A stretch of DNA of 64,000 nt from Arenicellales bacterium (GCA_965243645.1 CBDEVD010000006.1:1488838-1552837); one strand, 5' to 3'; positions 5,041-52,703 are shown, numbered from the stretch's first letter. The notes: a model not told the origin generated them from the letters alone. Program-made: numbers and translations.

Positions 5041-6363
5041 TCACCGCTTTGAGTCAAAGGGGTTTTTTCCGGCGCGGAAAACCACCCGTACATCGCACCC
5101 AAACAAATCAAACTGCTCGCGAAAATAGTTTTCCAGATATCTTCGATAGTGATCTGCTATCGAGTCTACATTATTACCATGGACTACAACAACCGGCGGA
5201 TTACGTCCGCCTTGGTGGGCGTATTTGAGCTTTACGGGGCGACGCCTTGACATCGGTGGTGGTGTTCGGGTAACCGCATTGTGAAGTAATCGGTTAAGGA
5301 TGCCGGTTGGCATTTCAGTCATCGCAGAACGATAGGCTTTGCCGACTGCCACCAACAACTTTTTCAATCCCTGGCGTTTCAGCCCGGAAATAAACAGTGC
5401 TTCATGGTGAGCAGCAAACGCGAGCTTCCTCTGTAAGTTTCTGATTGCATCAGCTCGTGTGGCTCTTTTCATCGCATCGGACTTATTCACCACAAGCACC
5501 ACAGGTCGGCCGGCTTTGCGAACCAGCCCAGCCAAAGTTGCATCCTGGTCGGAAATCGGTTCAGTACCGTCCAGCACTAAAATCACAACGTGAGCCGCCT
5601 CAATGGCTTGGAGCGTTTTTACCACCGACAGCTTTTCTAATGATTCATTGACCCGCGAACGTCGCCTGACACCTGCTGTGTCAAGAAATCGAAACCGGTC
5701 ATCGCCAATCTGGACCGGGACTGTTACAGTATCGCGGGTTGTACCCGGCGTATCGCTCACAATTAATCGACTTTCCTGGCAAAGGGTATTGATCAGTGTC
5801 GACTTACCGACATTGGGCTTCCCTACCACGGCAACTTTGGGGCCGGGATCCAGCCAGATTGGATCGTCAATTTTCGGTAGCGCCTGTGCAATGGGCTCAA
5901 GCATCCTTGCCACGCCGTTGCCACGACGCGCCGAAATCGCCACGGGTTCGCTAAACCCAAGCGCCTGAAACTCAACCATTGCCAGCTCTGGTGTCAAGCC
6001 TTCGCACTTGTTGACAACAATCGAAACAGGTGCTTTGGACTTGCCCAAGTGCTGCGCGATCCGCTCATCCGCGACGGTTAAACCATCGGTTGCATCGAGC
6101 AGTAAAATTATCGCGTCCGATTCATCCAGTACGGTTTCAACCTGTTCACTGATCAACTCAGAAAAGTCATCGCTGCCTTCACTTAGCCCACCTGTATCTA
6201 CAACCAGAAAGTTACGATCACCGTAGGCAGTAAGCCCGTACATTCGATCCCGAGTAACCCCGGGCACATCATCAACCAGCGCATCGCGGCTGCGAGTCAA
6301 TCGATTGAACAGCGTCGACTTGCCAACATTGGGTCGACCGACAATGCTGATAACCGGAAGCAT
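5041..6363 (-). CDS. der: Ribosome-associated GTPase Der (EngA)
   Basis: Two tandem GTPase domains (GRPNVGKST / GKPNVGKST, DTGG / DTAG, NKCE / NKSD) plus a KH-like C-terminus. Confidence 0.95.
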   Translation of the reverse strand: MLPVISIVGRPNVGKSTLFNRLTRSRDALVDDVPGVTRDRMYGLTAYGDRNFLVVDTGGLSEGSDDFSELISEQVETVLDESDAIILLLDATDGLTVADERIAQHLGKSKAPVSIVVNKCEGLTPELAMVEFQALGFSEPVAISARRGNGVARMLEPIAQALPKIDDPIWLDPGPKVAVVGKPNVGKSTLINTLCQESRLIVSDTPGTTRDTVTVPVQIGDDRFRFLDTAGVRRRSRVNESLEKLSVVKTLQAIEAAHVVILVLDGTEPISDQDATLAGLVRKAGRPVVLVVNKSDAMKRATRADAIRNLQRKLAFAAHHEALFISGLKRQGLKKLLVAVGKAYRSAMTEMPTGILNRLLHNAVTRTPPPMSRRRPVKLKYAHQGGRNPPVVVVHGNNVDSIADHYRRYLENYFREQFDLFGCDVRVVFRAGKNPFDSKR

Positions 6364-36981: not shown

Positions 36982-38691
36982 ATGAAAGCTGCAGTATACG
37001 CCCGTTACAGTTCGGAAAACCAGCGTCCGCAAAGTATTGAAGATCAAATTTCAACCTGCCGGAAATTCGCGATTGAAAATGATTTTTTTGTAGATGAAAA
37101 TTACATCTATTCGGATGAAGCAAAGTCAGGGGCGAGTAATGATCGAGATGGTCTCAATTCTCTAAGTGCAGCAGCACGCAACCACCATTTTGAAGTTGTA
37201 CTCGTAGATGATTTATCGCGTTTGGCACGAAATAATTACTTGATGCTTACGGTCCTCGCAGACCTTAGTTTTGAAGGAATTCGGGTAATATCAGTCGCAG
37301 ACGGATTGGATAGTAATGACCAAGAATCAACTCTTGGAATCCAAATTAGAGGGATTTTTAACGAACTTCAATTGCAGGATCTCAAGAAGAAAACGATGAG
37401 AGGTATGATTGGACAAAAACAGCGCGGATTCTCGGCGGGTGAACGCACGTTTGGATATACGTCTATTCCGGTAGGTGATATCCATTTAGATTCAAAAGGT
37501 AAGGAAAGACCTGAAGGATACAGAAAGGTAATTGATCCTCGCGAATCCGCGATTGTGTTGAGAGTATTTGAACATTATCGAAACGGTTGCTCAATCAACC
37601 AAATAGTAAAAATATTCAACCAGGAGAGTGTACCAACTCCGAAAAACAATACTAAAGCATGGTCAGCTGGAACTGTAAGTCGTATTATCAACAACGAAAA
37701 ATATATCGGGAAGTGGGTTTGGAACAAAACCGGAACTCGCCGCGATCCGAGAACTGGACGACAAAAGAAATTCAACAAACCAGAATCGGAGTGGATCGTC
37801 AAATTCGACGACAGTTTGCGTATTGTTTCACAGGATATCTGGGACGAAGTTCAAGCTCGAAGGAATGAACGGAAAAAGTCATGGCCTGGAGGAAAAGGCA
37901 AACGTGGTTTTGAGAGCAAGAATGGAAGTGTGGAAAAACACTTTCCAACAGATCTTTTTTCTGGTGCTATGACCTGCAAGAAATGTGGATCTACGATAGG
38001 AAAAGTGAGTGGAAAAGGTGGTGGATATTTCGGCTGTCTTGGAACAAAGATCGGCAAATGCGACAACAAGGTCAACGTGCGACGAAGCGTCCTGGAAAAC
38101 TTAATCCTTGACGATGTAAAACAACTGCTATCTGAACCCGAAAATATTCAAAGTGTTCTCAACAGTGTCGCAAACAAAATGAAAGAGCTATACTCGGAAT
38201 TTCCAAACAAAATTACCCGGAGAGAAAAAGAGTTGGCATCTGAAGAAAGAAAGCTCAACAATTTCATTAATTTTATCGGTGAAGGAAAGGGTACCCGGTC
38301 TCTCAACCACGCACTGATTGAAAGCGAAAACAAAATAGACAAGCTGAAAAATGAAATTCATGTGCTCCAGACTTCTCATTCAAAGGCGGTCCAAGCACCA
38401 CCGGTCAGATGGATTCAGAATCGACTCAACCATATTCAACACTTGCTTGAACGGAACATTTCTGAATCTGCAATGGTGTTAAGAAAATTACTCGGACCTA
38501 TTGAGCTCGAACCGGTATTTCCGGAGACCGGTAGACCGTATTACTTAGCACATACTACTTTTGAGACAATTTCCATAGTGGTAGATAAAAAATTCGCGCC
38601 TAACCCATTGGACAAAGGTGCGAATCAATATAGTTGGCGTCCCCACGGGGATTCGAACCCCGGTCGCCAGCGTGAAAGGCTGGTGTCCTAG
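36982..38691 (+). CDS. Large serine recombinase (resolvase domain + recombinase domain + Zn ribbon + coiled coil)
   Basis: 569 aa; AAVYARYSSENQ (catalytic Ser), VLVDDLSRLARN, GYRKVIDPRESAIV..., CKKCGS...GCLG Zn-ribbon cysteines, coiled-coil NKIDKLKNEIHVLQ. The last ~19 codons are antisense tRNA-Glu sequence (WRPHGDSNPG). Confidence 0.9.
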   Translation: MKAAVYARYSSENQRPQSIEDQISTCRKFAIENDFFVDENYIYSDEAKSGASNDRDGLNSLSAAARNHHFEVVLVDDLSRLARNNYLMLTVLADLSFEGIRVISVADGLDSNDQESTLGIQIRGIFNELQLQDLKKKTMRGMIGQKQRGFSAGERTFGYTSIPVGDIHLDSKGKERPEGYRKVIDPRESAIVLRVFEHYRNGCSINQIVKIFNQESVPTPKNNTKAWSAGTVSRIINNEKYIGKWVWNKTGTRRDPRTGRQKKFNKPESEWIVKFDDSLRIVSQDIWDEVQARRNERKKSWPGGKGKRGFESKNGSVEKHFPTDLFSGAMTCKKCGSTIGKVSGKGGGYFGCLGTKIGKCDNKVNVRRSVLENLILDDVKQLLSEPENIQSVLNSVANKMKELYSEFPNKITRREKELASEERKLNNFINFIGEGKGTRSLNHALIESENKIDKLKNEIHVLQTSHSKAVQAPPVRWIQNRLNHIQHLLERNISESAMVLRKLLGPIELEPVFPETGRPYYLAHTTFETISIVVDKKFAPNPLDKGANQYSWRPHGDSNPGRQRERLVS

Positions 38692-38712
38692 ACCTGACTA
38701 GACGATGGGGAC
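38635..38712 (-). tRNA. tRNA-Glu (anticodon UUC)
   Basis: Minus strand GTCCCCATCGTCTAGTCAGGTCTAGGACACCAGCCTTTCACGCTGGCGACCGGGGTTCGAATCCCCGTGGGGACGCCA folds as a cloverleaf: acceptor GTCCCCA/TGGGGAC, anticodon stem CCAGC/GCTGG with loop CTTTCAC, T-arm CGGGG-TTCGAAT-CCCCG, encoded CCA. Confidence 0.9.
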
Positions 38713-39142: not shown

Positions 39143-40369
39143 CTAATTTTCAGCACTTTCGAACGCGCTTGCATAGGCGTCTATGTCGACGGCACTCATA
39201 CCAAGTTGTCGCGCAACTTCGCGCCATTTGGCTATGACCTGGGACACTTCGATAATGATCTGATCTGCCTGATTCGCTTTGAGAGCGAAATACGGCGCTG
39301 CTCTGCGAGCTAAATCAATAGAGGCTTGCGGTCCTTCTTCTGAAATCCATGTTGTCAATTCGCGCACCGACTCCTCAAGGGGCACGGGGTTGAGATCATA
39401 AGCGGGTGATAACTGCCACTTACCGTCTCCTGCATAGAGAAATCCGTGGTTTCTCAGGTGGTCGTCGACATTGCCAATCATTACCCCAAAAATCATTCGC
39501 CTCCAGAGGTCGCATAAATCTTGAATCGGAGATATTGAATGCATGCGTATACTCTCAGCAATATCGGTGTAGGTTGCTATATCTCCATCATTGATTCCCA
39601 ATAGGCTCATTGCTGACAGAAACGGAATGCGGCGGTGCTCTGCCCGGTCGAAACGTCGTATAAGTGCGACCGAGCGCCCGGCAACCACCTCTATGCGTCC
39701 GCACGCGGTATTGATACCGGCTTGCTTGGCCAAAGTGAGAGCCAGAATTTCACCGTGGGTGATGCTACGATCATCATCTAATTTTGGAAACTTCGCAATT
39801 GCAAGCTGTCCGTCTTTATCAACAACAGCAGATTTTGGTCTTGCACCGCCGAGAGGAGATCCCTGGTTTAGCAGTAGATGCAAATCGTCTGTGGTTTCCG
39901 TGTTATTCAATACGGCATCAACAGCATTAAGTAACGCTGACATTTGAGTGAGAGGAGGCGTTTGATATTCGCCAATATTGAAATTAAGATGAGATTCACC
40001 TGCCCGCCTGTATCGAAGCGCACCAATTCGAGTGGCATCTTTCATCGCTAGCAGATAGTCAATTTCTGAAAGCGAACGCTTTTCACCGGATCGACGAAAG
40101 GCACGATGGATTAACTGCCGACCCCAACGATCAGGTGCGCTGTCTCGCAAGGGACCCGGCAAAGCTGATTTCTCAGAATTCGAGTAAACTGGATGCGGAC
40201 TAAGCGGAAGATTGGCTGGATCAAGTGCGAATGGCTTGCGGTAGGTTAGCCATTCATCGGCATATTCAAAAATGGAACTTTGGCTACGAAATTTATCCGC
40301 ATAACGGCATAGACCGACAAGCCGCGTCTCACCAAGACTATCAACGTAGACTTCTAGAGTTTCAGTCAT
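39143..40369 (-). CDS. hipA: HipA-family serine/threonine kinase toxin
   Basis: 408 aa; N-terminal coupling domain (LEVYVDSLGETRLVGL...FEYADEWL...DPANLPL). Catalytic IGNVDDHLRNHGFL and SPAYDLNP motifs are intact. Confidence 0.85.
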   Translation of the reverse strand: MTETLEVYVDSLGETRLVGLCRYADKFRSQSSIFEYADEWLTYRKPFALDPANLPLSPHPVYSNSEKSALPGPLRDSAPDRWGRQLIHRAFRRSGEKRSLSEIDYLLAMKDATRIGALRYRRAGESHLNFNIGEYQTPPLTQMSALLNAVDAVLNNTETTDDLHLLLNQGSPLGGARPKSAVVDKDGQLAIAKFPKLDDDRSITHGEILALTLAKQAGINTACGRIEVVAGRSVALIRRFDRAEHRRIPFLSAMSLLGINDGDIATYTDIAESIRMHSISPIQDLCDLWRRMIFGVMIGNVDDHLRNHGFLYAGDGKWQLSPAYDLNPVPLEESVRELTTWISEEGPQASIDLARRAAPYFALKANQADQIIIEVSQVIAKWREVARQLGMSAVDIDAYASAFESAEN

Positions 40370-40647
40370 GGCTTACATTTCCCGCGGCGATGCGTGACAA
40401 TCCGTTTTGGCAGTGGAGACTTTTCAATGTCGAGACCAAAGGCATCATTGCTGTGGTCGAAAATCGCACCTGACATAAATCAGGACAAAGGTGCGCATCA
40501 ATGTCAGTGGTGGACCCGAGTAAAATTGATTTGAATTCTCGCGAGTGTATCAACTACGTGAGATTAATCGAACCAATAAGGCTAACATCTCCTCGACAGT
40601 TATACTTCTTCACGATTCATAATGTTAATTTAATATACAATCAAAAT

Positions 40648-40665
40648 ATACATATTTATATGTAT
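40648..40665. promoter_or_regulatory. Perfect palindrome ATACATAT-TT-ATATGTAT upstream of phd (candidate operator)
   Basis: 8-bp arms with a 2-bp spacer, 31 bp upstream of the TTG start that has an AGGAG RBS. Phd/YefM antitoxins autoregulate through palindromic operators. Confidence 0.4.
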
Positions 40666-40695
40666 TTTGACCTACTCAATGACAGGAGCTTGAAA

Positions 40696-40944
40696 TTGGA
40701 AAGAATCTTGGCAAATAAAACCGTGTCCCTTACCGAACTTAGAGACCCCGCAAAAGTACTAGCAGGAGCAGGCGAATCACCGGTTGCGGTTTTAAACCGC
40801 AGTAACGTAGTCGGATATTTTGTACCAAAATCAGCGGTAGATAACGTAGATTTCAGGTACGCCGACACCGTTGATGTGCAAAAAACTGTTGATGAGTCAA
40901 TTGAACAAAACAAAGAACTACTTGACTACCTAAAAGACAAATAA
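40696..40944 (+). CDS. phd: Phd/YefM-family antitoxin
   Basis: 82 aa from TTG 40696 (AGGAG 7 nt upstream). An in-frame ATG at 40660 lacks an RBS. ..KTVSLTELRDPAKVL....PVAVLNRSNVVGYFVP.. pattern. Confidence 0.75.
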   Translation: MERILANKTVSLTELRDPAKVLAGAGESPVAVLNRSNVVGYFVPKSAVDNVDFRYADTVDVQKTVDESIEQNKELLDYLKDK

Positions 40945-40945
40945 A

Positions 40946-41317
40946 TTGGAAATCTTACGCAGTGTGGGTGTGCTGAACATTCACGCAAAGGTCATTAGCC
41001 CACAGGAGCTGCAAGGCCTAGCAGGCAATAAATCTTTGGAGGCAATCATCCATCGTATTGAGAATCGCATCCTCTACGGGATGATTGGAGACGTGTACGA
41101 TCTTGCCGCAACTTATGCTGTTGTAATTGCGGTTGACCACGTGTTCAATGATGCAAATAATAGAACAGCGGTTATCGCAATGGATACGGCTTTGCGTAGA
41201 AACGGAATCAGTTTAAGATTTGATGCTGAAAAAATGGGTCAAGTCATCATCAAGGTTGCACAGGGAATAGTTGACGAAACAGAATTGGCACGTCACCTTC
41301 GTTCTTTGTCGCAATAG
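40946..41317 (+). CDS. doc: Doc (death-on-curing) Fic-fold toxin
   Basis: 123 aa; Doc-type Fic motif HVFNDANNRTA (HxFx[DN][AG]NxR). Starts 1 nt after the phd stop. Confidence 0.85.
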   Translation: MEILRSVGVLNIHAKVISPQELQGLAGNKSLEAIIHRIENRILYGMIGDVYDLAATYAVVIAVDHVFNDANNRTAVIAMDTALRRNGISLRFDAEKMGQVIIKVAQGIVDETELARHLRSLSQ

Positions 41318-41432
41318 CAAATGCAAAGAAGAAAATTGTGATAATCGTAACTATTTACGACAATCAAGTTTAATTCGGAATAAAGTCATTAGCCGTTTAA
41401 CGATTTTCGATCATAACTGGAGGATTGTCCTA

Positions 41433-43418
41433 TCATTCGAGAGGGAAAATTTCCCGATATTCTTTATCGAGTTTGAAATCGAGACTACCAAATGCTTCCT
41501 GAATCTGGTCCCATGTAGCTGCTCGGTTATAGAAACTTTTTACAGAAGTACCGATACTGTCGTGAAACTTTCTGTACTCTTCAAAAATCAACTCATCAAC
41601 AATCGTTTTTAGCCACTTTCCAACTATGTATCGTTCTAAAAAATCTTTGTTCCCAAAGTAAGCAGAATTCTCAATCAAACCGTGAGTATACCCACATTTA
41701 TCCAATATTAAACGAAGTACAGCTATTGTTAAATAGTTCGCCATAGAGAAGAAGTGAAAGCTCTGTAGTTCTTTCAATATTTTTTCTTTGTCTTCAAGAA
41801 ATGATTCCTTTGTTTCAAATCTTCTCTTCAGAATTTTGCCAAATAAATAACTTCGGGTGACAATTTCTTTCATATTACTGAGTGTCTTGACATCACTGTC
41901 TTCAGAGTATTGACTGACTTTTAGAAGAATTTGACCGGTTGTTTTTGCATTACCGTAAATGCTGGTTTGGTTTGCTACAAGCTCAAACAAATTGAATGCC
42001 AAAATCATCTCTTTGACATAATCTTCACAAATTTTCTGAGGATCAAAAATTAACTTATAGCTCTTGCTATAGTCAGATCGAAAAATGTTTGCTTTCTGAA
42101 CTTTTCCTAGAGTCGGATCTTCCTTAAATGCCATCCAGATACTGGCCAATTTATCAATTGAAATTTTGTCATTCCAATTATCAAAGTCAGTTTTCCTCAT
42201 ACCTAATATGGAGTGTTTTTCTTTGTGTTCATCTAAATATTTTCTTTCTCCCCTTTTGATTTCATACAAGTATCCGAATTTCGCAAAGTATTTCTGCAAT
42301 TCTATTTGTTCTTTAGCATTAGCATAAAAGTCAGTCTCGTAAATTGAATTTTGACTGTTGTTGTATCGGATGACATTGCGTTCAAAATTTGAGGCTTCTC
42401 CTACCCCTTTACCATCATCTTGAATGACTCGAAACAAAACTTGAACCTCACGAAATTTCTCGATCGCAGAATTTTCGGCATCATCACTTGGATACTTTCT
42501 TGCTAGTTGGTTTTTCTTTTGCTGAAAGGCAGTAAAAATCGAATTAACAGTCTGAGCACCATTAATTATTTGTGGGTACTCAATTCGAAGTTTCTTTGTG
42601 TTTTCCTTGTACTTGAAACCCTTTGATGTGATAGTAAGCCCATTGTTATAGAAATAAAACATCTCTGGAAAATCATTCGCTGTATCACAGATCCCTGTGT
42701 TTATTTTGTTCTTTCCCAATCCAAATCTTAAGTTCTTATCAAACAACTTATAGCGAAACTCTTTTCTAATTCGGATAATTTCATCACCAGAAATTATTGA
42801 TACAAAAGTTCTGTGACGATTACTTAGATCTGGCGCTATATGCTTATGATGTAAAGCTATTTCAATGGATCTGGGTTCGGTCTTTTCTAATTTGGAAGTG
42901 TATTCTTGATATTCTTCCTTGATATCTTCCCACCCTCGATAATTAATATCTTTCTGGTACAGATTTCGTACTTCCTCTGAACAGTGACCAAGATGAAACA
43001 ACCACAGTTGGCTTTGATATCCCTCTTTGTCTGAGAATCTCAGAAATTCTTCGGCAATATCCTTTATCCGTATGTTCGTATGGTTATTGATATATTCACA
43101 GTCCCTTAATTTTTTGGGCACATCGTTGAGGTAGGAAAACCATTCCTTTTTTGCGGAACGTAGCTGCTTAATGGACCGGATAGACTTACACTGAATAATG
43201 TTGATTTGACTGTTCTCATGATCAACGAAAAATCCATCAATTGAATCATCATTAGTGTTGAGGCCGTCAAGCGCGCCATTAATCTCTTCGTGAGACAAGG
43301 AGTCCCAAAACACTTTTAGACAAAAATATGGGAAACTGTCTGTGATCTCGTTAGCATAGTCTTGTGCTTCTTTCTTGATGAATTTAAAGAAAGATTTGTT
43401 ATCTAGGTGAGAATCCAT
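41433..43418 (-). CDS. AIPR-family abortive-infection protein
   Basis: 661 aa, very AT-rich. N-terminal nuclease-like DSIDGFFVDHENSQINIIQCKS; central FYFYNNGLTITSKGF and QIINGAQT, which I associate with the AIPR domain. Confidence 0.72.
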   Translation of the reverse strand: MDSHLDNKSFFKFIKKEAQDYANEITDSFPYFCLKVFWDSLSHEEINGALDGLNTNDDSIDGFFVDHENSQINIIQCKSIRSIKQLRSAKKEWFSYLNDVPKKLRDCEYINNHTNIRIKDIAEEFLRFSDKEGYQSQLWLFHLGHCSEEVRNLYQKDINYRGWEDIKEEYQEYTSKLEKTEPRSIEIALHHKHIAPDLSNRHRTFVSIISGDEIIRIRKEFRYKLFDKNLRFGLGKNKINTGICDTANDFPEMFYFYNNGLTITSKGFKYKENTKKLRIEYPQIINGAQTVNSIFTAFQQKKNQLARKYPSDDAENSAIEKFREVQVLFRVIQDDGKGVGEASNFERNVIRYNNSQNSIYETDFYANAKEQIELQKYFAKFGYLYEIKRGERKYLDEHKEKHSILGMRKTDFDNWNDKISIDKLASIWMAFKEDPTLGKVQKANIFRSDYSKSYKLIFDPQKICEDYVKEMILAFNLFELVANQTSIYGNAKTTGQILLKVSQYSEDSDVKTLSNMKEIVTRSYLFGKILKRRFETKESFLEDKEKILKELQSFHFFSMANYLTIAVLRLILDKCGYTHGLIENSAYFGNKDFLERYIVGKWLKTIVDELIFEEYRKFHDSIGTSVKSFYNRAATWDQIQEAFGSLDFKLDKEYREIFPLE

Positions 43419-44106: not shown

Positions 44107-45135
44107 TAGCCCGAGTTTACCGAGTTCATCAAAAAGAATCTGGTGAAATTGCTTCGATTAGTTCGATAGCGCTATTGTAACCCATTGACACAATGGAATT
44201 ACCTCCCGACTGTGTCGAAACAGTCAGGACTTAAGCAATTGTCTGGGTGTGGTGACCTAACCGGCTCGATAACGATCCAGCTGCAGTGCTTCGTATAACG
44301 TTTTCTGGACTTCAGACAAGCTCGACAGCGTCATCTGTATCTTCGGCGAGGTGCCTTTTCTGTTAGCCGGGTAGACGACACCGAGTTCTTTGATTGTTGC
44401 CAGCTCATCGAGTACCTGATGACACGAAAACGTGTGGCCCTCCTGATTGATCAGATGACGATACAGCAGGGTTTGTAACATCAGTGCCAGCACACAGATC
44501 AGTACATGCACCTGGATTTTCTGATCCGTCCAGTGATACTGGGGACGAATGGTAAGGTGGCGGGTGTCTTTGAGATCTCGAAAGGCGCACTCGACATGAT
44601 GCTGTGCGCGATAGCCGTGCACAATCTGTGCATCACTCCAGTCGCTACGGTCAGTGAAGATGAGATGCTTGCCAAGCAACGTGCGCTGCAGATGTTTCCA
44701 GGCCTGCCGATCAAAACGATAGGTCAGTTTAGGGATGTTTTGGTCGCTAAGTTGCACGGCAACCTTGAACAGATCTTTCATGTGCCGGGCTTTGACACAC
44801 TCGTTAACTTTTCTGTGCGTGCCGGCTACGGTTGGAGGTCGGCCTTTTTTGATGAGTCCCTGGTGCCAGCGCCGCAGCTGCCACTGAATCTCGTACAGTT
44901 GTTGCCGGCGCTTGGCAATCTCGCGCATCATGGTGGCTGTTTGGGTTTGTTCCAGATTCTGGTTTTTCGCCACCACCACCGTATACTCGCTCTGCCGTAG
45001 AGTTCTTTGGTGGTGCGCCAGGTGCTCACGCCCGGTATCTCATCGAGCGGTTGGAGCTGGCGCGCCGGCAAGTCTGGATGATGGGTCGGCACCAGGGAGC
45101 CGATCAGGTGATAAGGACTGTCGTGTACGGCGGCA
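44107..45135 (-). mobile_element. IS4/IS1634-like element, copy A: transposase-distal terminus plus the C-terminal ~290 codons of the transposase (frameshifted)
   Basis: Terminus TAGCCCGAGTTTACCGAGTTCA. ORF 44257-44979 (..HGYRAQHHVECAFRDLK..RPQYHWTDQKIQVHVLICVLALML..). The upstream part HDSPYHLIGSLVPTHHPDL lies in another frame, with the shift near 44985-45000. Confidence 0.75.
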
Positions 45136-45332
45136 TGTAGGTAACGGTTGAATATCCCAAAAGTAACGGTTGAAATTCCCCACTATTTAGTGGGCAACAT
45201 AGTGGGGACTATCTCGCCAACCGAACTATGTAGCGTAGTTTATTAACATCCTAATTTAATTGTAAAAAATCAAATCGATGACGACATAGTATAGGCTTCA
45301 ATCACAGCCCGTTTATGGGCAGGAGCTATATT

Positions 45333-46562
45333 ATGAGTAATCGGAATTATGATCAAATTACGTTTCGACGGCCAGCAATTGGACCGTTCGCTTCACATTT
45401 GTCCCAATTTGCTGAGGTATTACGCGCAAAACAGTATGCACCGGTAACTGTTTATTGCATATCGCGTCACGTTGCCCGATTCAGCGAATGGTTGGCAGAG
45501 CAGCAAATTGGACTCGACACATTTTCGGAAGAACAGACCGAACGCTATTTGGAAACCAAGAAAGGCATCGTGCGAACGCATGCACGCAATGCGATTGGGC
45601 ATTTATCCATCTATTTACAATCGGAAGGACTTCCAGCTTTGACTTGCACAGTTCAAGTCTTGTCATCGGTGGACCATTGTGTTGCGCAGTATGCGCAGTA
45701 TTTGCGAGTACAAAGGAATCTGGCCGGAGGCACCATTCGGTGTTATCGCGCAGTCGTTCGAGAATTCCTCCATTATCAATTTGGCAATGAAGCTGTGGAT
45801 TTTGATTCATTATGCACCGAAGGCGTGATTAGTTATTTGCGTCATAAAGCCAAACTGTTGAATCAAGTTGCAAGCGTACAAGCTATTGCCGTTGCATTAC
45901 GTTCGTTTCTGCGCTATGTGAATCGTCAAACCGGAAAACTGACTGAAACAATCTCTCAAGTACCTTCGGTGGCGGGCTGGTCACAGCAATCGTTGCCGCG
46001 CGCAATGGCATCCGAACAGGTGGAAAAGCTATTGGACAGCGTTGACTGCACTACGGCGACCGGAAAGCGAGACTACGCAATCATTTTGTTGCTCGCACGG
46101 CTGGGATTACGTGCTTGCGAGGTGGCATTCTTGACACTTGATGATATTGACTGGAGCACTTCAACGCTGACCGTAACGTTAAAAAGTGGGCGTCAAAGTC
46201 GCTATCCGTTAACCCAACAAATCGGTGATTCGATGGTTGATTATCTGCAAAATGCGCGTCCGAAAAGTCACAGCCGACGCGTGTTTTTGCGTGTCAATGC
46301 GCCATTCGACGGATTTAAAACTTCAGTCGGTGTTTGCAGCCTGGTCAGTCGTCAAATCCAGCGCGCTGGCATCGATGCGCCAACCCGCGGGAGCCATCAA
46401 TTACGACATGCGGTTGCCACCACAATGTTGAGCCAAGGTGCCTCACTGGAACAGATTGGAAACTTGCTCAGCCACCGCGACCTTGAGAGCACGCATATTT
46501 ACACCAAGGTCGATATTGATGCACTGCGTGGTTTGACACTGCGGTGGCCGGGAGTAAGCTGA
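45333..46562 (+). CDS. Tyrosine recombinase, RIT subunit A
   Basis: Start ATG 45333 after AGGAG. C-terminal HQLRHAVATTML...LSHRDLESTHIYTKV (R-H-R-Y catalytic pattern). Confidence 0.85.
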   Translation: MSNRNYDQITFRRPAIGPFASHLSQFAEVLRAKQYAPVTVYCISRHVARFSEWLAEQQIGLDTFSEEQTERYLETKKGIVRTHARNAIGHLSIYLQSEGLPALTCTVQVLSSVDHCVAQYAQYLRVQRNLAGGTIRCYRAVVREFLHYQFGNEAVDFDSLCTEGVISYLRHKAKLLNQVASVQAIAVALRSFLRYVNRQTGKLTETISQVPSVAGWSQQSLPRAMASEQVEKLLDSVDCTTATGKRDYAIILLLARLGLRACEVAFLTLDDIDWSTSTLTVTLKSGRQSRYPLTQQIGDSMVDYLQNARPKSHSRRVFLRVNAPFDGFKTSVGVCSLVSRQIQRAGIDAPTRGSHQLRHAVATTMLSQGASLEQIGNLLSHRDLESTHIYTKVDIDALRGLTLRWPGVS

Positions 46563-47506
46563 TGAATACACTGAAACAGGCGGTTCACGATTACGTGAAC
46601 CTCAGACGTAGCCTCGGATTTAAACTGTCTGATGCAGAACGGTATTTGACGCAATTTGTCATGTATCTCGAGCAGCACAAGCAATCGTATATCACCGAAG
46701 CATGGGCGGTCAAATGGGCGCAGTTGCCGGGCGAAGCAAAGCCTGCTTGGGCGGTTGCCCGTCTTGGCATGGTACGAGAATTTGCGCGTTATCGACAAAT
46801 TGCTGATCCAAGAACCGAAATTCCTGCTTTCCATGTACTGTCGGCAAAGCGTAGTCGACCGAAACCATATCTGTACACGGAAGAAGAAGTGTGCATCTTG
46901 ATGCAGAGCGCACAAAATATGCCTTGTCGAACACGACATGATGCATTGCGTCCATGGACCTACTATTGTTTGATTGGATTGCTGTGCGTTACAGGAATGC
47001 GGCCCGGTGAGGCCTGCGGACTAAAACTCAAGGATGTCGATTTAAATCGTGCATTGATCACAGTTCATGCGGAAAAATACGATCGTACGCGTCTTGTTCC
47101 AATCCATGAGTCGACCTGTACAGCGCTTGAGGAGTATATACAGCGGCGGGCACAATATTGGTGCGGCCACCCAGTGGCCGAACAGTTGTTTGTAACGCGC
47201 AACGGCACACGATTATCCAAAGGGCTGGTACAAGACACTTTCCGCGCTTTGACAATCCAGTCTGGTCTGCGCAAAACGCATGATTCCCATGGACCACGTC
47301 TGCAAGATTTCAGACACCGCTTCGCAGTCAGAGCTCTGGAGAATTGTTATCGCAGCGATGCCGATCCGGAAAAGATATTGCCCGTGCTTTCGGCCTACCT
47401 GGGCCATGTGCGCATTGGCAATACCTACTGGTATCTGGAAAGTAATCCTGGGTTGATGTCACAGGCCATGCGAAAACTCGAACGTCGTTGGGAAGGTGTG
47501 TTATGA
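46562..47506 (+). CDS. Tyrosine recombinase, RIT subunit B
   Basis: ATG 46562 overlaps the subunit A stop (TGATG). GMRPGEACGL, FRHRFAV, LGHVRIGNTYWYL. Confidence 0.85.
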   Translation: MNTLKQAVHDYVNLRRSLGFKLSDAERYLTQFVMYLEQHKQSYITEAWAVKWAQLPGEAKPAWAVARLGMVREFARYRQIADPRTEIPAFHVLSAKRSRPKPYLYTEEEVCILMQSAQNMPCRTRHDALRPWTYYCLIGLLCVTGMRPGEACGLKLKDVDLNRALITVHAEKYDRTRLVPIHESTCTALEEYIQRRAQYWCGHPVAEQLFVTRNGTRLSKGLVQDTFRALTIQSGLRKTHDSHGPRLQDFRHRFAVRALENCYRSDADPEKILPVLSAYLGHVRIGNTYWYLESNPGLMSQAMRKLERRWEGVL

Positions 47507-48513
47507 ATCCTCACACCACCCCCAATGAATTGACCGTTCTGATCAAGCAGTACTTTTTTCAACGCCTGACCAACCAACGTCAAGCAAGCCATCATACGGT
47601 CAAGTCATATCGCGATACATTTCGACAACTGTTCGATTTTGCAGCCAAATACTTGGGACAGGAACCTTCCAAGTTACTGTTCAATCAGCTTGATGAAACT
47701 TTAATCTCAGCGTTTCTTGATGATCTGGAAACTGCCCGTAAGGTCAGTATCCGCACCCGAAATCTGAGATTGACTGCAATTCAGTCGTTTTTCCGCTACG
47801 CATTTGAGCAGACGTTCCCCGAACATTCAGTACAAATTCAAAAAGTGCTGGCTATTCCGGCCAAACGTTTTGTGCACAAACAAATTGGCTTTCTTCGCCG
47901 GGAAGAGGTGGTCGCGTTGCTGAACGCTCCCGTGCGCAGTACGTGGATTGGGCGGCGCGATCACGCCTTTATTCTCACGGCAGTACAAACTGGGCTTCGG
48001 GTATCGGAGATGACCGCACTGAAGCGCGAAGATGTCATTTTGGGTGAAAGTTCTCACTTGCGGGTTTTCGGTAAAGGACGTAAGCAACGTTGTACACCGC
48101 TGGCAAAATCCACTCGTTCAGTGCTGACCCGCTGGATGCGGGAACCGGACCGTGGAAACTCTAAGCAATTGTTTCCAAATTTTCGCGGTGACTCGTTAAC
48201 GATCCACGGTGTTCAGTACATGTTGAAAAAACATCAAAAAAAGGCAGCCATACAATGCCCTACACTCGCAATTAAACAACTCAGCGTCCACCTATTGCGG
48301 CACACCGCGGCAATGGAGTTGTTGCAAGGTGGCGTAGACCGGTCAACCATTGCATTGTGGTTAGGGCACGAGCATGTTGAAACTACTCAGATCTACGTAG
48401 AAGCGACGATGGAGATGAAAATTCAGGCACTCGCCAAAGTGACGCCACTTTCGCAAAAACCAACGCGCTTTACCGCAGATGATCAACTGATGAAGTTTCT
48501 CGACAGCTTGTGA
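47503..48513 (+). CDS. Tyrosine recombinase, RIT subunit C
   Basis: ATG 47503 overlaps the subunit B stop (ATGA). GLRVSEMTAL, HLLRHTAAMELL, LGHEHVETTQIYVEA. Confidence 0.85.
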   Translation: MNPHTTPNELTVLIKQYFFQRLTNQRQASHHTVKSYRDTFRQLFDFAAKYLGQEPSKLLFNQLDETLISAFLDDLETARKVSIRTRNLRLTAIQSFFRYAFEQTFPEHSVQIQKVLAIPAKRFVHKQIGFLRREEVVALLNAPVRSTWIGRRDHAFILTAVQTGLRVSEMTALKREDVILGESSHLRVFGKGRKQRCTPLAKSTRSVLTRWMREPDRGNSKQLFPNFRGDSLTIHGVQYMLKKHQKKAAIQCPTLAIKQLSVHLLRHTAAMELLQGGVDRSTIALWLGHEHVETTQIYVEATMEMKIQALAKVTPLSQKPTRFTADDQLMKFLDSL

Positions 48514-48678
48514 GCGTAGAAATACTATGTAGCGTTGTTCGAAAATTCGTACACTATTATTATTTCTTTTCAACATGATAACGTTGCCTTCAGAAACTAC
48601 GCTACATAGTTCGGTTGGCGAGATAGTCCCCACTATTTAGTGGGCAACATAGTGGGGAATTTGACATCGTTACCTACA

Positions 48679-48859
48679 CGGCAATATTGTCCTCGCAGTT
48701 GTTGCCTTTATCGAACACCAGGGTGACATCGGCATCGTGGTGGTTGCCGAGTTCATGAAACCGTGCCATCAGGGCATCGATGAGACTGCGAAAGGTCGGG
48801 GAGTCAGGCTGGTTGCCAGGATAGGTGTGATGCAGAATCGGCAGGTGATGATCGGCGGC
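48679..48859 (-). pseudogene. IS copy A transposase, central fragment (continuation across the RIT insertion)
   Basis: Minus strand reads AADHHLPILHHTYPGNQPDSPTFRSLIDALMARFHELGNHHDADVTLVFDKGNNCEDNIA. Removing the RIT plus one CGGCA joins it in frame to AVHDSPYHLIGSLVP at 45130 and downward. Confidence 0.75.
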
Positions 48860-48867
48860 TGTAGGTT

Positions 48868-49318
48868 ACTTACACCATTCGTCCCCAGTATCACTGGACT
48901 GATCAGAAAATCCAGGTGCATGTGCTGATCTGTGTGCTGGCACTGATGCTGCAAACCCTGCTGTATCGGTATTTGGGCAGTCAGGGCCAGATGCTTTCGT
49001 GCACTCAGATAATTGAACAGTTGGCGGCAATCAAAGAGGTCGGCGTGGTCTATCCGTCCAAACGCAAAGACTCCTCGCCAACGATACAGATGACGCTGTC
49101 GAGCCTGTCTGAGACCCAGAAAATACTGTACAAGTCGCTACAGCTGGATCGTTATCGAGCCGGTTAGGTCACACGTCCCCAGAGAATCGTTTTGGTCCTG
49201 ACATTTTCAGGAGTGTCAGGAGGTAATTCCATTGCGTCAATGAGTTACAATAGACTCTCCCAATTAATCGAACCTACTTCGCCGAGTGCAAGTTGTTGAA
49301 CTCGGTAAACTCGGGCTA
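48868..49318 (+). mobile_element. IS4/IS1634-like element, copy B fragment: last ~98 transposase codons plus terminus, inverted relative to copy A
   Basis: TIRPQYHWTDQKIQVHVLICVLALMLQTLLYRYL...LQLDRYRAG* parallels the copy A C-terminus with many substitutions. Terminus ..TGAACTCGGTAAACTCGGGCTA ends at 49318. Confidence 0.72.
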
Positions 49319-49463
49319 GGAGGAAAAGGCAAACGCGGACTCCAAAATTAGACTGGAAGTGTGCAACTACGCTACACAAATCACTTTAGAAACCGTTTCC
49401 ACGTTACAAGACAAAATCGCGCCTGACATAGAAGATGAGGTCTAAGATGCGAATTAATATTGG
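49319..49463 (+). pseudogene. Relic B of a large serine recombinase abutting tRNA-Ala
   Basis: GGAGGAAAAGGCAAACGCGG matches 37888-37907 at 19 of 20 positions. Then YATQITLETVSTLQDKIAPD parallels YLAHTTFETISIVVDKKFAPN. Ends GCGAATTAATATTGG directly before the tRNA 3' end. Confidence 0.55.
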
Positions 49464-49539
<76 letters not shown>

Positions 49540-51024: not shown

Positions 51025-51305
51025 ATTTAGTGGTCGGGGCAGCTAGAGAATATTCTGAATAAAACCGAATGCGTCAGTCGATCCAAATAGCAAAAACCTG
51101 TTGTTGTGGGAACATCTGGCAATAGAGCACGCTGCAATCGCTCATAAGGTGACTCAATTTGAATCAGAAAGGTTCAGACGCAAGCGAAATGTGAAACCTA
51201 CACGAAATTGAACCGGTCATTTATTTTCAATAGATATTGACTGCTCTGAGTCTATTTCTCTATTTCGGAAGAAATCTTGTTGCTGAACCTACCCTTCTTC
51301 AACAC

Positions 51306-51557
51306 TTAAATCTCAAGAGGATTGAAACGAAAATACCGTTTGATGAACTCAACCGGAACACCATCGCGCAACATTGCCTGAGCGATCTTGTGCTTGGTTT
51401 CCAACTCACCTTTCTTTCTACCTTGTTCCAGGCCTTGTTCCAGACCTTGTTCCAGACCCTGTTCTATACCGATTTCTATGCCCTTAAGCTCACCGACTTT
51501 TTGACTAACTTCATCGTTGCTCCAACTCAAATCGATAATGTTTATTGCACCTGTCAT
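51306..51557 (-). pseudogene. Duplicated 3' fragment of the Rpn/YhgA-like gene
   Basis: The 83-aa ORF MTGAINIIDLSWSNDEVSQKVGELKGIEIGIEQGLEQGLEQG... repeats the C-terminus of 51609-52292. About 70 bp are identical at the DNA level (ttctatgcccttaagctcaccgac...atcgataatgttt). Confidence 0.6.
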
Positions 51558-51608
51558 TTCGATAGTCCATCGTTAACCACAAACTGATCAATTTTCGTAA
51601 AACCGGTT

Positions 51609-52703
51609 TCATCGGCTATTGTTGATACCGTTTTTCAACGCCTTAATCTCATCATCATTGAATTGAAAATACCGTTTAATAAAATCAACCTTAACTCCAT
51701 CAGCCAACATGGCTTGTGCTAGATTTTGCTTGGTTTCCAACTCACCTTTTTTTCTTCCTTGTTCTATGCCTTGTTCCAGACCCTGTTCCAGACCTTGTTC
51801 CAGACCCTGTTCTATGCCGATTTCTATGCCCTTAAGCTCACCGACTTTTTGACTAACTTCATCGTTGCTCCAACTCAAATCGATAATGTTTGTTGCGCCT
51901 GTCATTTCAACCTCCAATTCCGCCCACCACGAAAAATCAAGCTTCTTTCGATCATTAATATATTTTACTACCGGCAACCAATACTCCGAAAATTCCAATT
52001 CGCTCAGCGTCGAGGTCTTGCGAATCATCTCCATTGCAACCGCCCGATCAAAACGCTTGGTATGATTGACCGCACCCATCGCATACAGCATTATGGAAGC
52101 AGGAGACTCGGAAGATTTAAGCCGCTCCAGTACCGGTTCAGAACAAAGATTCAACACCATCACCGGAAACTGCGGAAGAACATCACCAAAGGCTGCTTGA
52201 AACTGGGCTCCATAGTCTTCTATGCAATCGCTGAGATTGATGGTAGTGCCAATCCTGCTTCTAGCATCATTGCTGATTGTCAGTATCACCACCGGTGTCT
52301 AACACTCACACACTGTACCGAAATAATAGCGAAGCAACTGCGACATCAATTGCTTGCGTCTTAGTTTACTCTTGAGTTCCACTAGAATCTGGATCGACTT
52401 GTTGTCCCCGCGTGCGTTCTCACGTAACGGTACCGCAATAAGCGCATCGGCATCTTGCAGAGAACCGCGAGGAGAAGTTGTACGGGTAGACAAAAGCAAA
52501 CTCTTGTGAGAATCGATGACCTGCACTTGCGATTGACTGAAGACCAAGTCAATTAGCAGGGGAATACCCAGACTTGTACGTAGAAATTTTTCAAATATCC
52601 AGTGGTGAGTACGTGCAACAATTGTGTTTGATTGGACCGGTTGGTCTTTCATAAGATCCCTCTTCAACTTTGCAATCAGCAATGATTGGCTTGTGGGTGC
52701 CAA
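51609..52703 (-). pseudogene. Rpn/YhgA-like PD-(D/E)XK nuclease (putative transposase family) interrupted by one in-frame TAG
   Basis: ORFs 52299-52703 and 51609-52292 are in the same frame: ..YYFGTVCEC*TPVVILTISNDARS... The C-terminal GIEQGLEQG...RKKGE...AQAML..G tail is typical of this family. Confidence 0.65.

Follow-up and report, generated by a model that had tools for sequence, protein, structure and literature searches.

Recombinase-in-trio (RIT) elements are said to include ritA1B1C1 of Cupriavidus metallidurans CH34 and elements of C. necator pHG1 and Aromatoleum aromaticum EbN1, in work attributed to Van Houdt (2009/2012) and Ricker (2013). The overlaps of their genes are described as 4-8 bp and ATGA (PMC3414803, PMC2864759), and the reason for three recombinases is left unexplained (PMC3414803). 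Their target specificity is listed as 'not tested', and transposition of a RIT has yet to be reproduced (PMC10214605). Neither the junctions nor the targets of RITs were found described in the accessible literature, which did not cover Ricker et al. 2013 and Van Houdt et al. 2009; the 'RIT' in PMC12306157 is an unrelated abbreviation. Here we describe a RIT element inserted in a transposase gene in a 64,000-nt stretch of DNA from an Arenicellales bacterium (GCA_965243645.1 CBDEVD010000006.1:1488838-1552837), hereafter the window, in which positions are counted from the first letter.

An intact RIT element in an IS1634-family transposase gene

The element spans positions 45136-48678 (3,543 bp), as read directly from the window and from the alignment of its ends. 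It comprises three intact, ordered and overlapping tyrosine recombinase genes between inverted-repeat ends, and the gene overlaps are TGATG and ATGA, as stated in an earlier note made from the sequence alone, all coordinates and sequences of which were confirmed. RitA, RitB and RitC are 46, 50 and 61% identical, respectively, to their counterparts on EbN1 plasmid 2, end to end (E 6e-112 to 8e-152). The gene order RitA-RitB-RitC is the same as in EbN1, and each protein pairs with its positional counterpart. Because the three proteins align end to end with the EbN1 RIT proteins, family membership is well supported by sequence comparison, which identifies 45136-48678 as one intact RIT copy, ritA-ritB-ritC. 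The GC content of the RIT (0.482) does not differ from that of the window (0.475).

The element lies within the transposase gene of an insertion sequence (IS) of the IS1634 family. The flanks, read on the minus strand, are 34% identical to residues 222-558 of a Rhodococcus IS1634-family transposase in a nearly gap-free alignment, with no gap at the junction. A database search yielded intact homologues of the host transposase with lengths of 565-580 aa and identities of 75-80%. Removal of 45136-48683, that is, the element and one CGGCA, gives ..FDKGNNCEDNIAAVHDSPYHLIGSLVP.. on the minus strand, and the ..NCEDNIAAVHDSPYH.. restored by this excision is exactly the reading of intact transposases of the IS1634 family that share 80% identity with the host copy. 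Intact homologues read ..LVFDKGNNCEDNIAAVHDSPYHMIGSLVPTHHPDL.., identical across the junction to the window without 45136-48683. Among them, P0123 (577 aa, 80%) and P0124 (565 aa, 79%) read NCEDNIAAVHDSPYHMIGSLVPTHHPDL with no gap at the junction. Since the intact homologues match the restored junction, the insertion is exact, with one extra CGGCA.

The restoration of the frame proposed in the earlier note is thus borne out, and uninterrupted homologues carry the junction that it had named as a check. CGGCA is present at both flanks as the note had stated. Its reading of this repeat as a target-site duplication holds as a description, but the relatives described below point to a shared crossover core rather than to a duplication made by staggered cuts.

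The host IS (IS#1) was, or became, a pseudogene. It is incomplete, as the N-terminal ~220 aa and the left end are missing; it carries a frameshift; and at ~48860 it runs into an inverted fragment of another copy, IS#2, to which it is fused. The target site of the RIT is GGCGGCA, within GTACGGCGGCAATATT. The coordinates of all features are summarized in Table 1.

Taken as one explanation, we consider it rather probable that a discrete 3,543-bp RIT was inserted into a decaying IS1634-family element and that this occurred by a conservative mechanism at a crossover core. It is hardly credible that the repeats and CGGCA are features of chance or assembly and that the trio is a fixed, immobile gene cluster. 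Such an explanation could draw only on the fact that RIT transposition lacks experimental demonstration in the literature. Against it, the repeat patterns are far above chance (expected counts in shuffled sequences, 0.00-0.4), a conserved open reading frame (ORF) is interrupted base-precisely, and near-identical RitB variants are present on other contigs.

Table 1 Positions of the RIT element, its component parts and the host IS copies in the window.
Feature	Position	Strand	Remarks
Host IS (IS#1), 3' part	44107..45135	-	Transposase residues ~276 to end and IS end; frameshift near 44980-45020
Direct repeat CGGCA, left copy	45131..45135		Host IS sequence; proposed crossover core; intact homologues require a single copy
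Left outer shell	45136..45177	+	11-bp terminal inverted repeat TGTAGGTAACG and two tandem ~19-22-bp units
Left 30-bp block	45178..45207	+	9-bp inverted arms CCCCACTAT / ATAGTGGGG, 12-bp spacer TTAGTGGGCAAC
Left inner inverted repeat	45199..45240	+	42 bp, perfect match to the right one
ritA	45333..46562	+	409 aa; AGGAG 8 nt upstream; alternative ATG at 45315
ritB	46562..47506	+	314 aa; overlaps ritA stop by 1 nt (TGATG)
ritC	47503..48513	+	336 aa; 4-nt overlap with ritB (ATGA)
Extra inner-repeat motif copy TACTATGTAGCGTTGTT	48523..48539	+	Directly past ritC stop; mirrors the copy at 45280; kept in relatives
Right inner inverted repeat	48595..48636	-	42 bp, perfect match to the left one
Right 30-bp block	48628..48657	+	Identical to left block, same + strand orientation
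Right outer shell	48658..48678	-	One unit AATTTGACATCGTTAC and terminal inverted repeat ..CGTTACCTACA
Direct repeat CGGCA, right copy	48679..48683		
IS#1 middle part	48684..48859	-	Transposase ..AADHHLPILHH..NIA; homology to intact transposases ends at GGCGGC (48854-48859)
Second junction/footprint	48853..48874	+	CGGCGGC/TGTAGGT repeats the left RIT junction
IS#2	48874..49318	+	Inverted 3' fragment of a second, diverged IS1634-family copy, 75-91% similar

Architecture of the ends

Each end consists of three layers, which are, from the outside inwards, the shell, the 30-bp block and the 42-bp inner inverted repeat. The formal alignment of the inverted repeats with gaps starts at the termini and gives lengths of 111 bp (left) and 90 bp (right), in agreement with the earlier estimate of about 100 bp. 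The gap-free core comprises 74 nt at 86% identity (45173-45246 / 48589-48662). Within the window, the terminal TGTAGGTAACG is confined to two places, 45136-45146 (+) and 48668-48678 (-). The internal 22-bp tandem duplication reported for the left repeat corresponds to two units, 45141-45159 and 45163-45181 (or, taken one base shorter, 45141-45158 and 45163-45180), which are 89% identical. The left inverted repeat is longer than the right because of the second copy of this ~19-22-bp unit, which is absent on the right. The shell was also compared by eye with the inner repeat as a possible decayed copy of it; the two had only CAACCG in common, and the resemblance was judged not significant.

The 30-bp block CCCCACTATTTAGTGGGCAACATAGTGGGG is located at 45178-45207 and 48628-48657, on the + strand in both cases. 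Its 12-bp centre had been reported to have the same orientation at both ends, and it is indeed a direct repeat, because both blocks read the same way on the + strand. A repeat finder lists the region as a 37-nt direct repeat (family D2). With the centre left free, the pattern of the arms gives 2 matches versus 0.01 expected. TAGTGGG is present in three copies within the block, one inverted and two direct.

The left inner repeat contains the motifs ACTATCT at 45208 and ACTATGT at 45225, and a third, inverted copy on the left, GACGACATAGT, lies at 45280-45290. Over the whole element, the ACTAT(C/G)T motifs are arranged in the order > > < ... > < <, with the third copy 45-70 bp further in.

A second junction at a GGCGGC site

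The 14-15-mer CGGCGGC(A)TGTAGGT has two matches in the window, with 0 expected, and the second match is located at 48853-48866. It sits exactly where the homology of IS#1 to intact transposases ends, at codons ..AADHH. The 15 nt past GGCGGC, TGTAGGT+TACtTACA, match, at all but one position, the first 7 nt of the left end joined to the last 8 nt of the right end. We infer that 48853-48874 is a scar left by a second insertion, which took place at another GGCGGC (Ala-Ala) site, and that it was later involved in the rearrangement by which the two IS copies became fused. That the same 7-bp flank is found at two junctions speaks for recombination or target choice that is sequence-specific at the outer terminus.

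The three recombinases

All three ORFs match PF00589 (Phage_integrase catalytic domain) with E values of 1e-23 to 1e-30. By NCBIfam models, all three are Xer-like but score far under the cut-offs for XerC/XerD. RitA is longer by ~115 residues at the N terminus, where it has a second SAM-like domain; Pfam assigns PF13495 to residues 23-74 and PF02899 to residues 118-199, and Xer-like models begin only at ~114-119. RitA proteins with two sequential core-binding (SAM-like) domains have been described (Smyshlyaev 2021, PMC8138268), and the window RitA agrees with this description. RitC of RITs has one more conserved helix at the C terminus (PMC8138268). The RitC tail in the window extends ~35 aa past the catalytic Tyr and is shared with EbN1 RitC and with the reconstructed RitC-type targets (..RF...D.L..FL.SL). 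Of the catalytic R..HxxR..Y residues, as read from the translations, the box-II motif is HQLRH in RitA and HLLRH in RitC, and the C-terminal Tyr context is present in all three proteins. RitB has Gln248 (..GPRLQDFRH..) at the position of the box-II His, where 24 of the 25 aligned relatives have His (..GPRLHDFRH..).

The RitB cluster holds three near-identical variants: P0122 is the window copy, and P0121 (L4M) and P0001 are encoded on other contigs. By their sequences, these variants suggest further copies of the element, with P0121 apparently from the same genome and P0001 from another genome. Exact-protein look-ups with the window RitA (both starts) and RitC, and with P0001 and P0121, gave no record. 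Many RitB-encoding contigs are 3.40-3.46 kb long, which is the size of a RIT, suggesting that they are collapsed multi-copy repeats or assembled circles.

Junctions of related RITs

Relatives were gathered through RitB. One RitB query gave 3,556 RitB-like proteins at E <= 1e-20; with more than 3,500 RitB relatives from a single query, RITs are widespread. The loci comprised 5 from genomes, 4 on ENA contigs and 80 from metagenomes, together with regions of pHG1 and EbN1. The comparison draws on about 45 relatives, which stem from metagenomes and from the plasmids pHG1 and EbN1-2, and 41 main-clade RITs are included in the junction table. The Arg-His pattern described below was drawn from loci L011-L090, L091, L092, L002 and L003. 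The scan of genome contigs detected only five RITs, all distant (37-48%), and the metagenome scan detected no relative above 55% identity. A scan of viral contigs with the inner-repeat pattern gave no match. In a distant blastn search against plasmids, matches were obtained in Aromatoleum EbN1 and C. necator pHG1, the classical hosts of RITs.

The inner repeat of the main clade is CACTATCTACCCTTCCTGACTATGTC, to which that of the window RIT is identical at 21 of 32 positions. Main-clade ends are of two types. The first reads flank-CGNCA-CTATCT.., with a flank that translates as ..(K/R)V(S/T)PHxLRH. The second reads ..AGATAG-TGNCG-CTATGTC-spacer-GACATAG-nCGNCA-flank, with a flank that translates as RH(S/T)xA(T/M)HLL... 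In this layout, the palindromic block is present on one side only, and the nCGnCA core that flanks the insertions is often imperfect. Hairpin-based 'blocks' called in coding flanks proved spurious, and the block calls rest on a tightened criterion. Among the 41 main-clade RITs, block-less ends adjoin an ORF ending in H..RH in 39 of 43 cases, and block-bearing ends adjoin an ORF starting with RH.. in 34 of 37. The junction consensus is nCnCCnCATnnnnTn-CGnCA-CTATCTACC, and the inner site is GACATAG-nCGnCA-CTATCTAC, with 7-bp inverted arms and a 6-bp spacer.

In-silico excision of the RIT together with the block and one core restored ORFs of 304-356 aa wherever the contig was long enough. Four restored ORFs were scanned, and each gave one Phage_integrase match covering positions 2-170 of 172. 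Several of the restored target ORFs are RitC-like, and ..CTATTGCGGCACACC.. of a ritC gene is a candidate target. The classical RITs share this layout: the EbN1 copy has a ritB-type 5' part (..GPRLHDLRH) on one side and a ritC-type 3' part (RHTTAMHLLQAG..) on the other, and the block adjoins RitC-type 3' halves in the two pHG1 RITs. Flank translations examined by eye place two distant Acidobacteriota RITs (42-46% RitB identity) likewise at RH codons. Judged by these flanks, main-clade RITs are shown to interrupt other tyrosine recombinase genes, and the point of insertion is exactly the box-II Arg-His codons. This position offers a way to explain the 'complex combinations' of truncated RIT genes that PMC3414803 describes.

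The commonest main-clade core is CGGCAC, found at 13 of 43 ends. By eye, the core copies of the two junctions are identical in 9 of 27 one-block elements and different in about two thirds. Differing copies are expected if one copy arrives with the element, and are not expected for a fresh duplication. Seven elements have no block and are flanked by two 5' halves, and three have two blocks and are flanked by two 3' halves; we read these as reciprocal products of recombination between copies.

In the two-block relatives L053, L060 and L068, the block spacers are direct repeats in all three cases, as in the window. This would account for the orientation that the earlier note found unexpected: the asymmetric centre would belong to a single junction site, tied in its orientation to the element, and could not invert with the arms. 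A spacer orientation fixed relative to ritABC throughout the family was considered and rejected, as both orientations occur; it is constant only in close copies and in two-block elements. The spacer is 12 bp in the window RIT versus 4-8 bp in other RITs.

Among the close copies, L007 and L008/L009 have one RIT in one IS transposase target in opposite orientations, with the block on opposite sides (~2600-2650 and ~6060-6110). The orientation of their spacer, TTTCTC, is constant relative to ritABC. A simple inversion through the inverted repeats was rejected for L007 and L008, as it would leave the spacer in the orientation opposite to that seen. The pattern is consistent with a circular form whose junction is palindromic. 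Beside the element, L007 lacks 7 bp of the target (ACGGCAA).

L006 represents an independent RIT lineage. It has a tandem pair of units on the side of ritA and a single unit on that of ritC, in sequence unrelated to the window shell, and reads naturally as a one-block insertion at the centre of a near-perfect palindrome, ..GATTATTCTGA-AT-TCAGAATAATC... At the inner core position, the window element has TGGGGA, L008 has GCCGAA and L006 has TCGGAA.

A crossover core as the likely origin of CGGCA

We propose that the three Xer-like tyrosine recombinases would move the element by conservative site-specific recombination through a circular intermediate, without staggered cuts. CGGCA would be the conserved part of nCGnCA, the 6-bp crossover spacer of the relatives. 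Because it is equal to the commonest RIT core, we infer that the CGGCA of the window is a recombinase crossover region and not a staggered-cut duplication. In the main clade, the spacer would be the Arg-His (CGN CAC) codon pair as the regular target, and the site GGCGGCA in the IS transposase gene would be an off-target with the same core. Joined round one CGGCA, the termini would form CGTTACCTACA-CGGCA-TGTAGGTAACG, an 11-5-11 palindrome shaped like a classical recombinase core site. Arms of 7 bp in inverted orientation with a 6-bp spacer are the geometry of a simple tyrosine-recombinase core site. When the window spacer is read as 6 bp, its copies are GCGGCA and ACGGCA, which differ at position 1 only, a position that is variable in the family.

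The 30-bp block would be the palindromic core-type site of the family, with the integration core carried by its arms in relatives. The candidate junction of an inner-unit circle would be ..GGCGAGATAGT-(30-bp block)-ACTATCTCGCC... The block spacer would keep one orientation relative to ritABC and would thus appear as a direct repeat when both ends carry the block. Starting from a circle junction composed of the reverse complement of the inner repeat, the block and the inner repeat, crossover in the nCGnCA spacer of one arm would produce the one-block layout. Crossover in the other arm would produce the reverse orientation, with the block on the other side. The earlier suggestion that the block is a recombinase-binding or crossover site fits this putative family-wide architecture.

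Alternatively, CGGCA could be a true 5-bp target-site duplication, generated by the RIT in the manner of a classical transposon, with staggered cuts that are then repaired and with virtually no restriction on the target sequence. The two copies of the repeat are identical and exactly 5 bp long, and the target gene is restored when one of them is removed. However, tyrosine recombinases generally join conservatively without repair synthesis, the relatives have a sequence-specific and often imperfect core rather than random duplications, and the two window junctions have the common flank CGGCGGC. Tn554 makes no duplication either (cited in PMC10214605). We therefore regard this origin as quite improbable.

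Several points weigh against the crossover-core interpretation. The end points and the target rule depend on one full junction pair and one remnant. The core of the relatives abuts the inner repeat, whereas CGGCA in the window abuts the outer shell, which the main clade lacks. The match of CGGCA could be a coincidence, as a random 5-mer fits CGNCA at ~0.4%, and overlap regions of tyrosine recombinases are usually 6-8 bp; at 6 bp, the two window cores are no longer the same (G vs A at the first base). The box-II His is usually counted among the catalytic residues of tyrosine recombinases, and RitB has Gln at this position. The perfect 5-bp repeat, the TG..CA termini and the 22-bp subterminal units resemble the ends of Tn7/Tn402/IS3-type DDE elements. 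Finally, neither a circular junction nor transposition of a RIT has been shown experimentally (PMC10214605, PMC5737581).

The features of the ends could also be explained by nested elements. In this case, the shell (45136-45177 and 48658-48678, possibly with the central block) would be a separate small palindromic TG..CA carrier moved by a Tn7/Tn402/IS3-type DDE transposase. Insertion of the carrier would have made the CGGCA duplication, the RIT proper would then have entered the carrier centre with the 6-bp spacer TGGGGA, and CGGCA would be uninformative on RIT integration. By the logic of the main clade, DNA outside the outer arm of the block is target DNA, and the window is laid out in this way at both ends. 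The inner core TGGGGA is unlike CGGCA, the typical DDE-like features of the termini are those named above, and the reconstructed empty shell folds into a long hairpin (z = -5.25). L006 is readable as a one-block insertion into the centre of a palindrome; yet its two-plus-one unit layout, the same as in the window but unrelated in sequence, resembles co-evolving binding sites rather than a chance host. Moreover, at ~65-95 bp the carrier would be very short, CGGCA is the same as the modal core of RITs, and the same 7 flank bases at the second junction would be unusual for DDE elements. Within the 64-kb window, we found no solo shell or other shell-only copy, no further TGTAGGTAACG end and no cognate DDE transposase. 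On balance, we consider nesting unlikely, but less so than a staggered-cut duplication.

Returning to the crossover core, a broader reading can be held only tentatively. RITs may be homing integrative elements with a palindromic circle junction, in which nCGnCA crossover takes place at the Arg-His codons of other tyrosine recombinase genes; the window copy would then have used the same core off-target, and its extended two-layer end would suggest that different recombinases of the trio act on different types of site. If so, the target genes would include ritB and ritC of other RITs, and RITs would parasitise other mobile elements at those codons that are most conserved in the enzyme family to which they themselves belong; the 'mazes' of truncated recombinase genes seen on pHG1 and EbN1 would thereby be explained. 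If the homing rule is true, RIT boundaries could also be annotated simply, and the rule would help in interpreting plasmid clusters of truncated integrase genes. A base-precise insertion with a homologue-confirmed empty site provides att-like candidates, namely the termini joined round CGGCA, the 30-bp block and the nCGnCA core. The proof by the empty site, the family-wide Arg-His homing pattern and the core-site model are potentially new.

Genomic neighbourhood

The surroundings of the IS copies and the RIT look like a genomic island. A large serine recombinase gene (36982-38712; Resolvase, Recombinase and Zn-ribbon domains) overlaps the 3' end of a tRNA-Glu gene and looks like an island integrase. 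A homologous serine recombinase fragment of ~60 bp is present between the end of IS#2 and tRNA-Ala (49314-49539). A candidate RIT remnant, ATTTGTGTAGCGTAGTT at 49365-49381, has 3 mismatches and lies inside the serine recombinase fragment homologous to 37883-37942; it is probably a chance match and was rejected. Genes for a HipA-like toxin kinase (39143-40369) and an AIPR abortive-infection protein (41433-43418) are located in a low-GC stretch (0.41 vs 0.475). The region 39143-43418 looks like a defence or toxin island beside an IS/RIT graveyard. At 51290-51908, two repeat units of ~340 bp, 80-93% identical, contain 12-nt tandem repeats ACCTTGTTCCAG and lie inside an ORF without a Pfam match.

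Comparison with known systems

The window element resembles classical RITs in its three overlapping Xer-like tyrosine recombinase genes in the order A-B-C, its length of ~3.5 kb and its inverted-repeat ends. Insertion into a transposase gene also has precedents, in IS66 tnpA of CH34 and in a Tn6049-like tnpA of Acidithiobacillus (PMC2864759, PMC3414803). Palindromic direct repeats at both ends were reported, unexplained, for Sphingobium RITs (PMC5737581). In contrast, the ends of the window element are 90-111 bp with a TG..CA shell, whereas the inverted repeats in the literature are 28-34 bp (PMC3414803, PMC10214605). Unlike main-clade RITs, which lie at the Arg-His codons of recombinase genes, the window copy has an IS1634 transposase gene as its target, and its RitB differs from that of relatives by the Gln at the box-II His position.

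Tn554/SE-type elements likewise have several tyrosine recombinases and site-specific targets, and a 6-bp flank travels along with them rather than being duplicated (PMC10214605); the imperfect core copies of RIT relatives look similar. Those elements have no terminal inverted repeats and carry cargo and a non-recombinase third or fourth protein (TnpC, Srap, Tfp), whereas the RIT has three recombinases only and long inverted repeats.

The sites of dif/XerCD, loxP/Cre and FRT/Flp consist of two inverted arms round a short asymmetric spacer, the orientation of which decides the outcome. Comparable sites in RITs are the inner site of the main clade, the blocks and, for the window element, the termini when virtually joined. 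A RIT end differs in having several such sites and extra motif copies, the RIT encodes three recombinases, and the 12-bp spacer of the block exceeds any well-studied overlap region.

With the ends of Tn7/Tn402/Mu-type DDE elements, the window element shares the TG..CA termini, the 5-bp direct repeat and subterminal units of ~22 bp that are unequal in number. It differs from them in its shell, which measures only 21-42 bp on each side and encloses recombinase genes alone, and in that neither a DDE transposase gene nor an ATPase gene is present in or beside the element.

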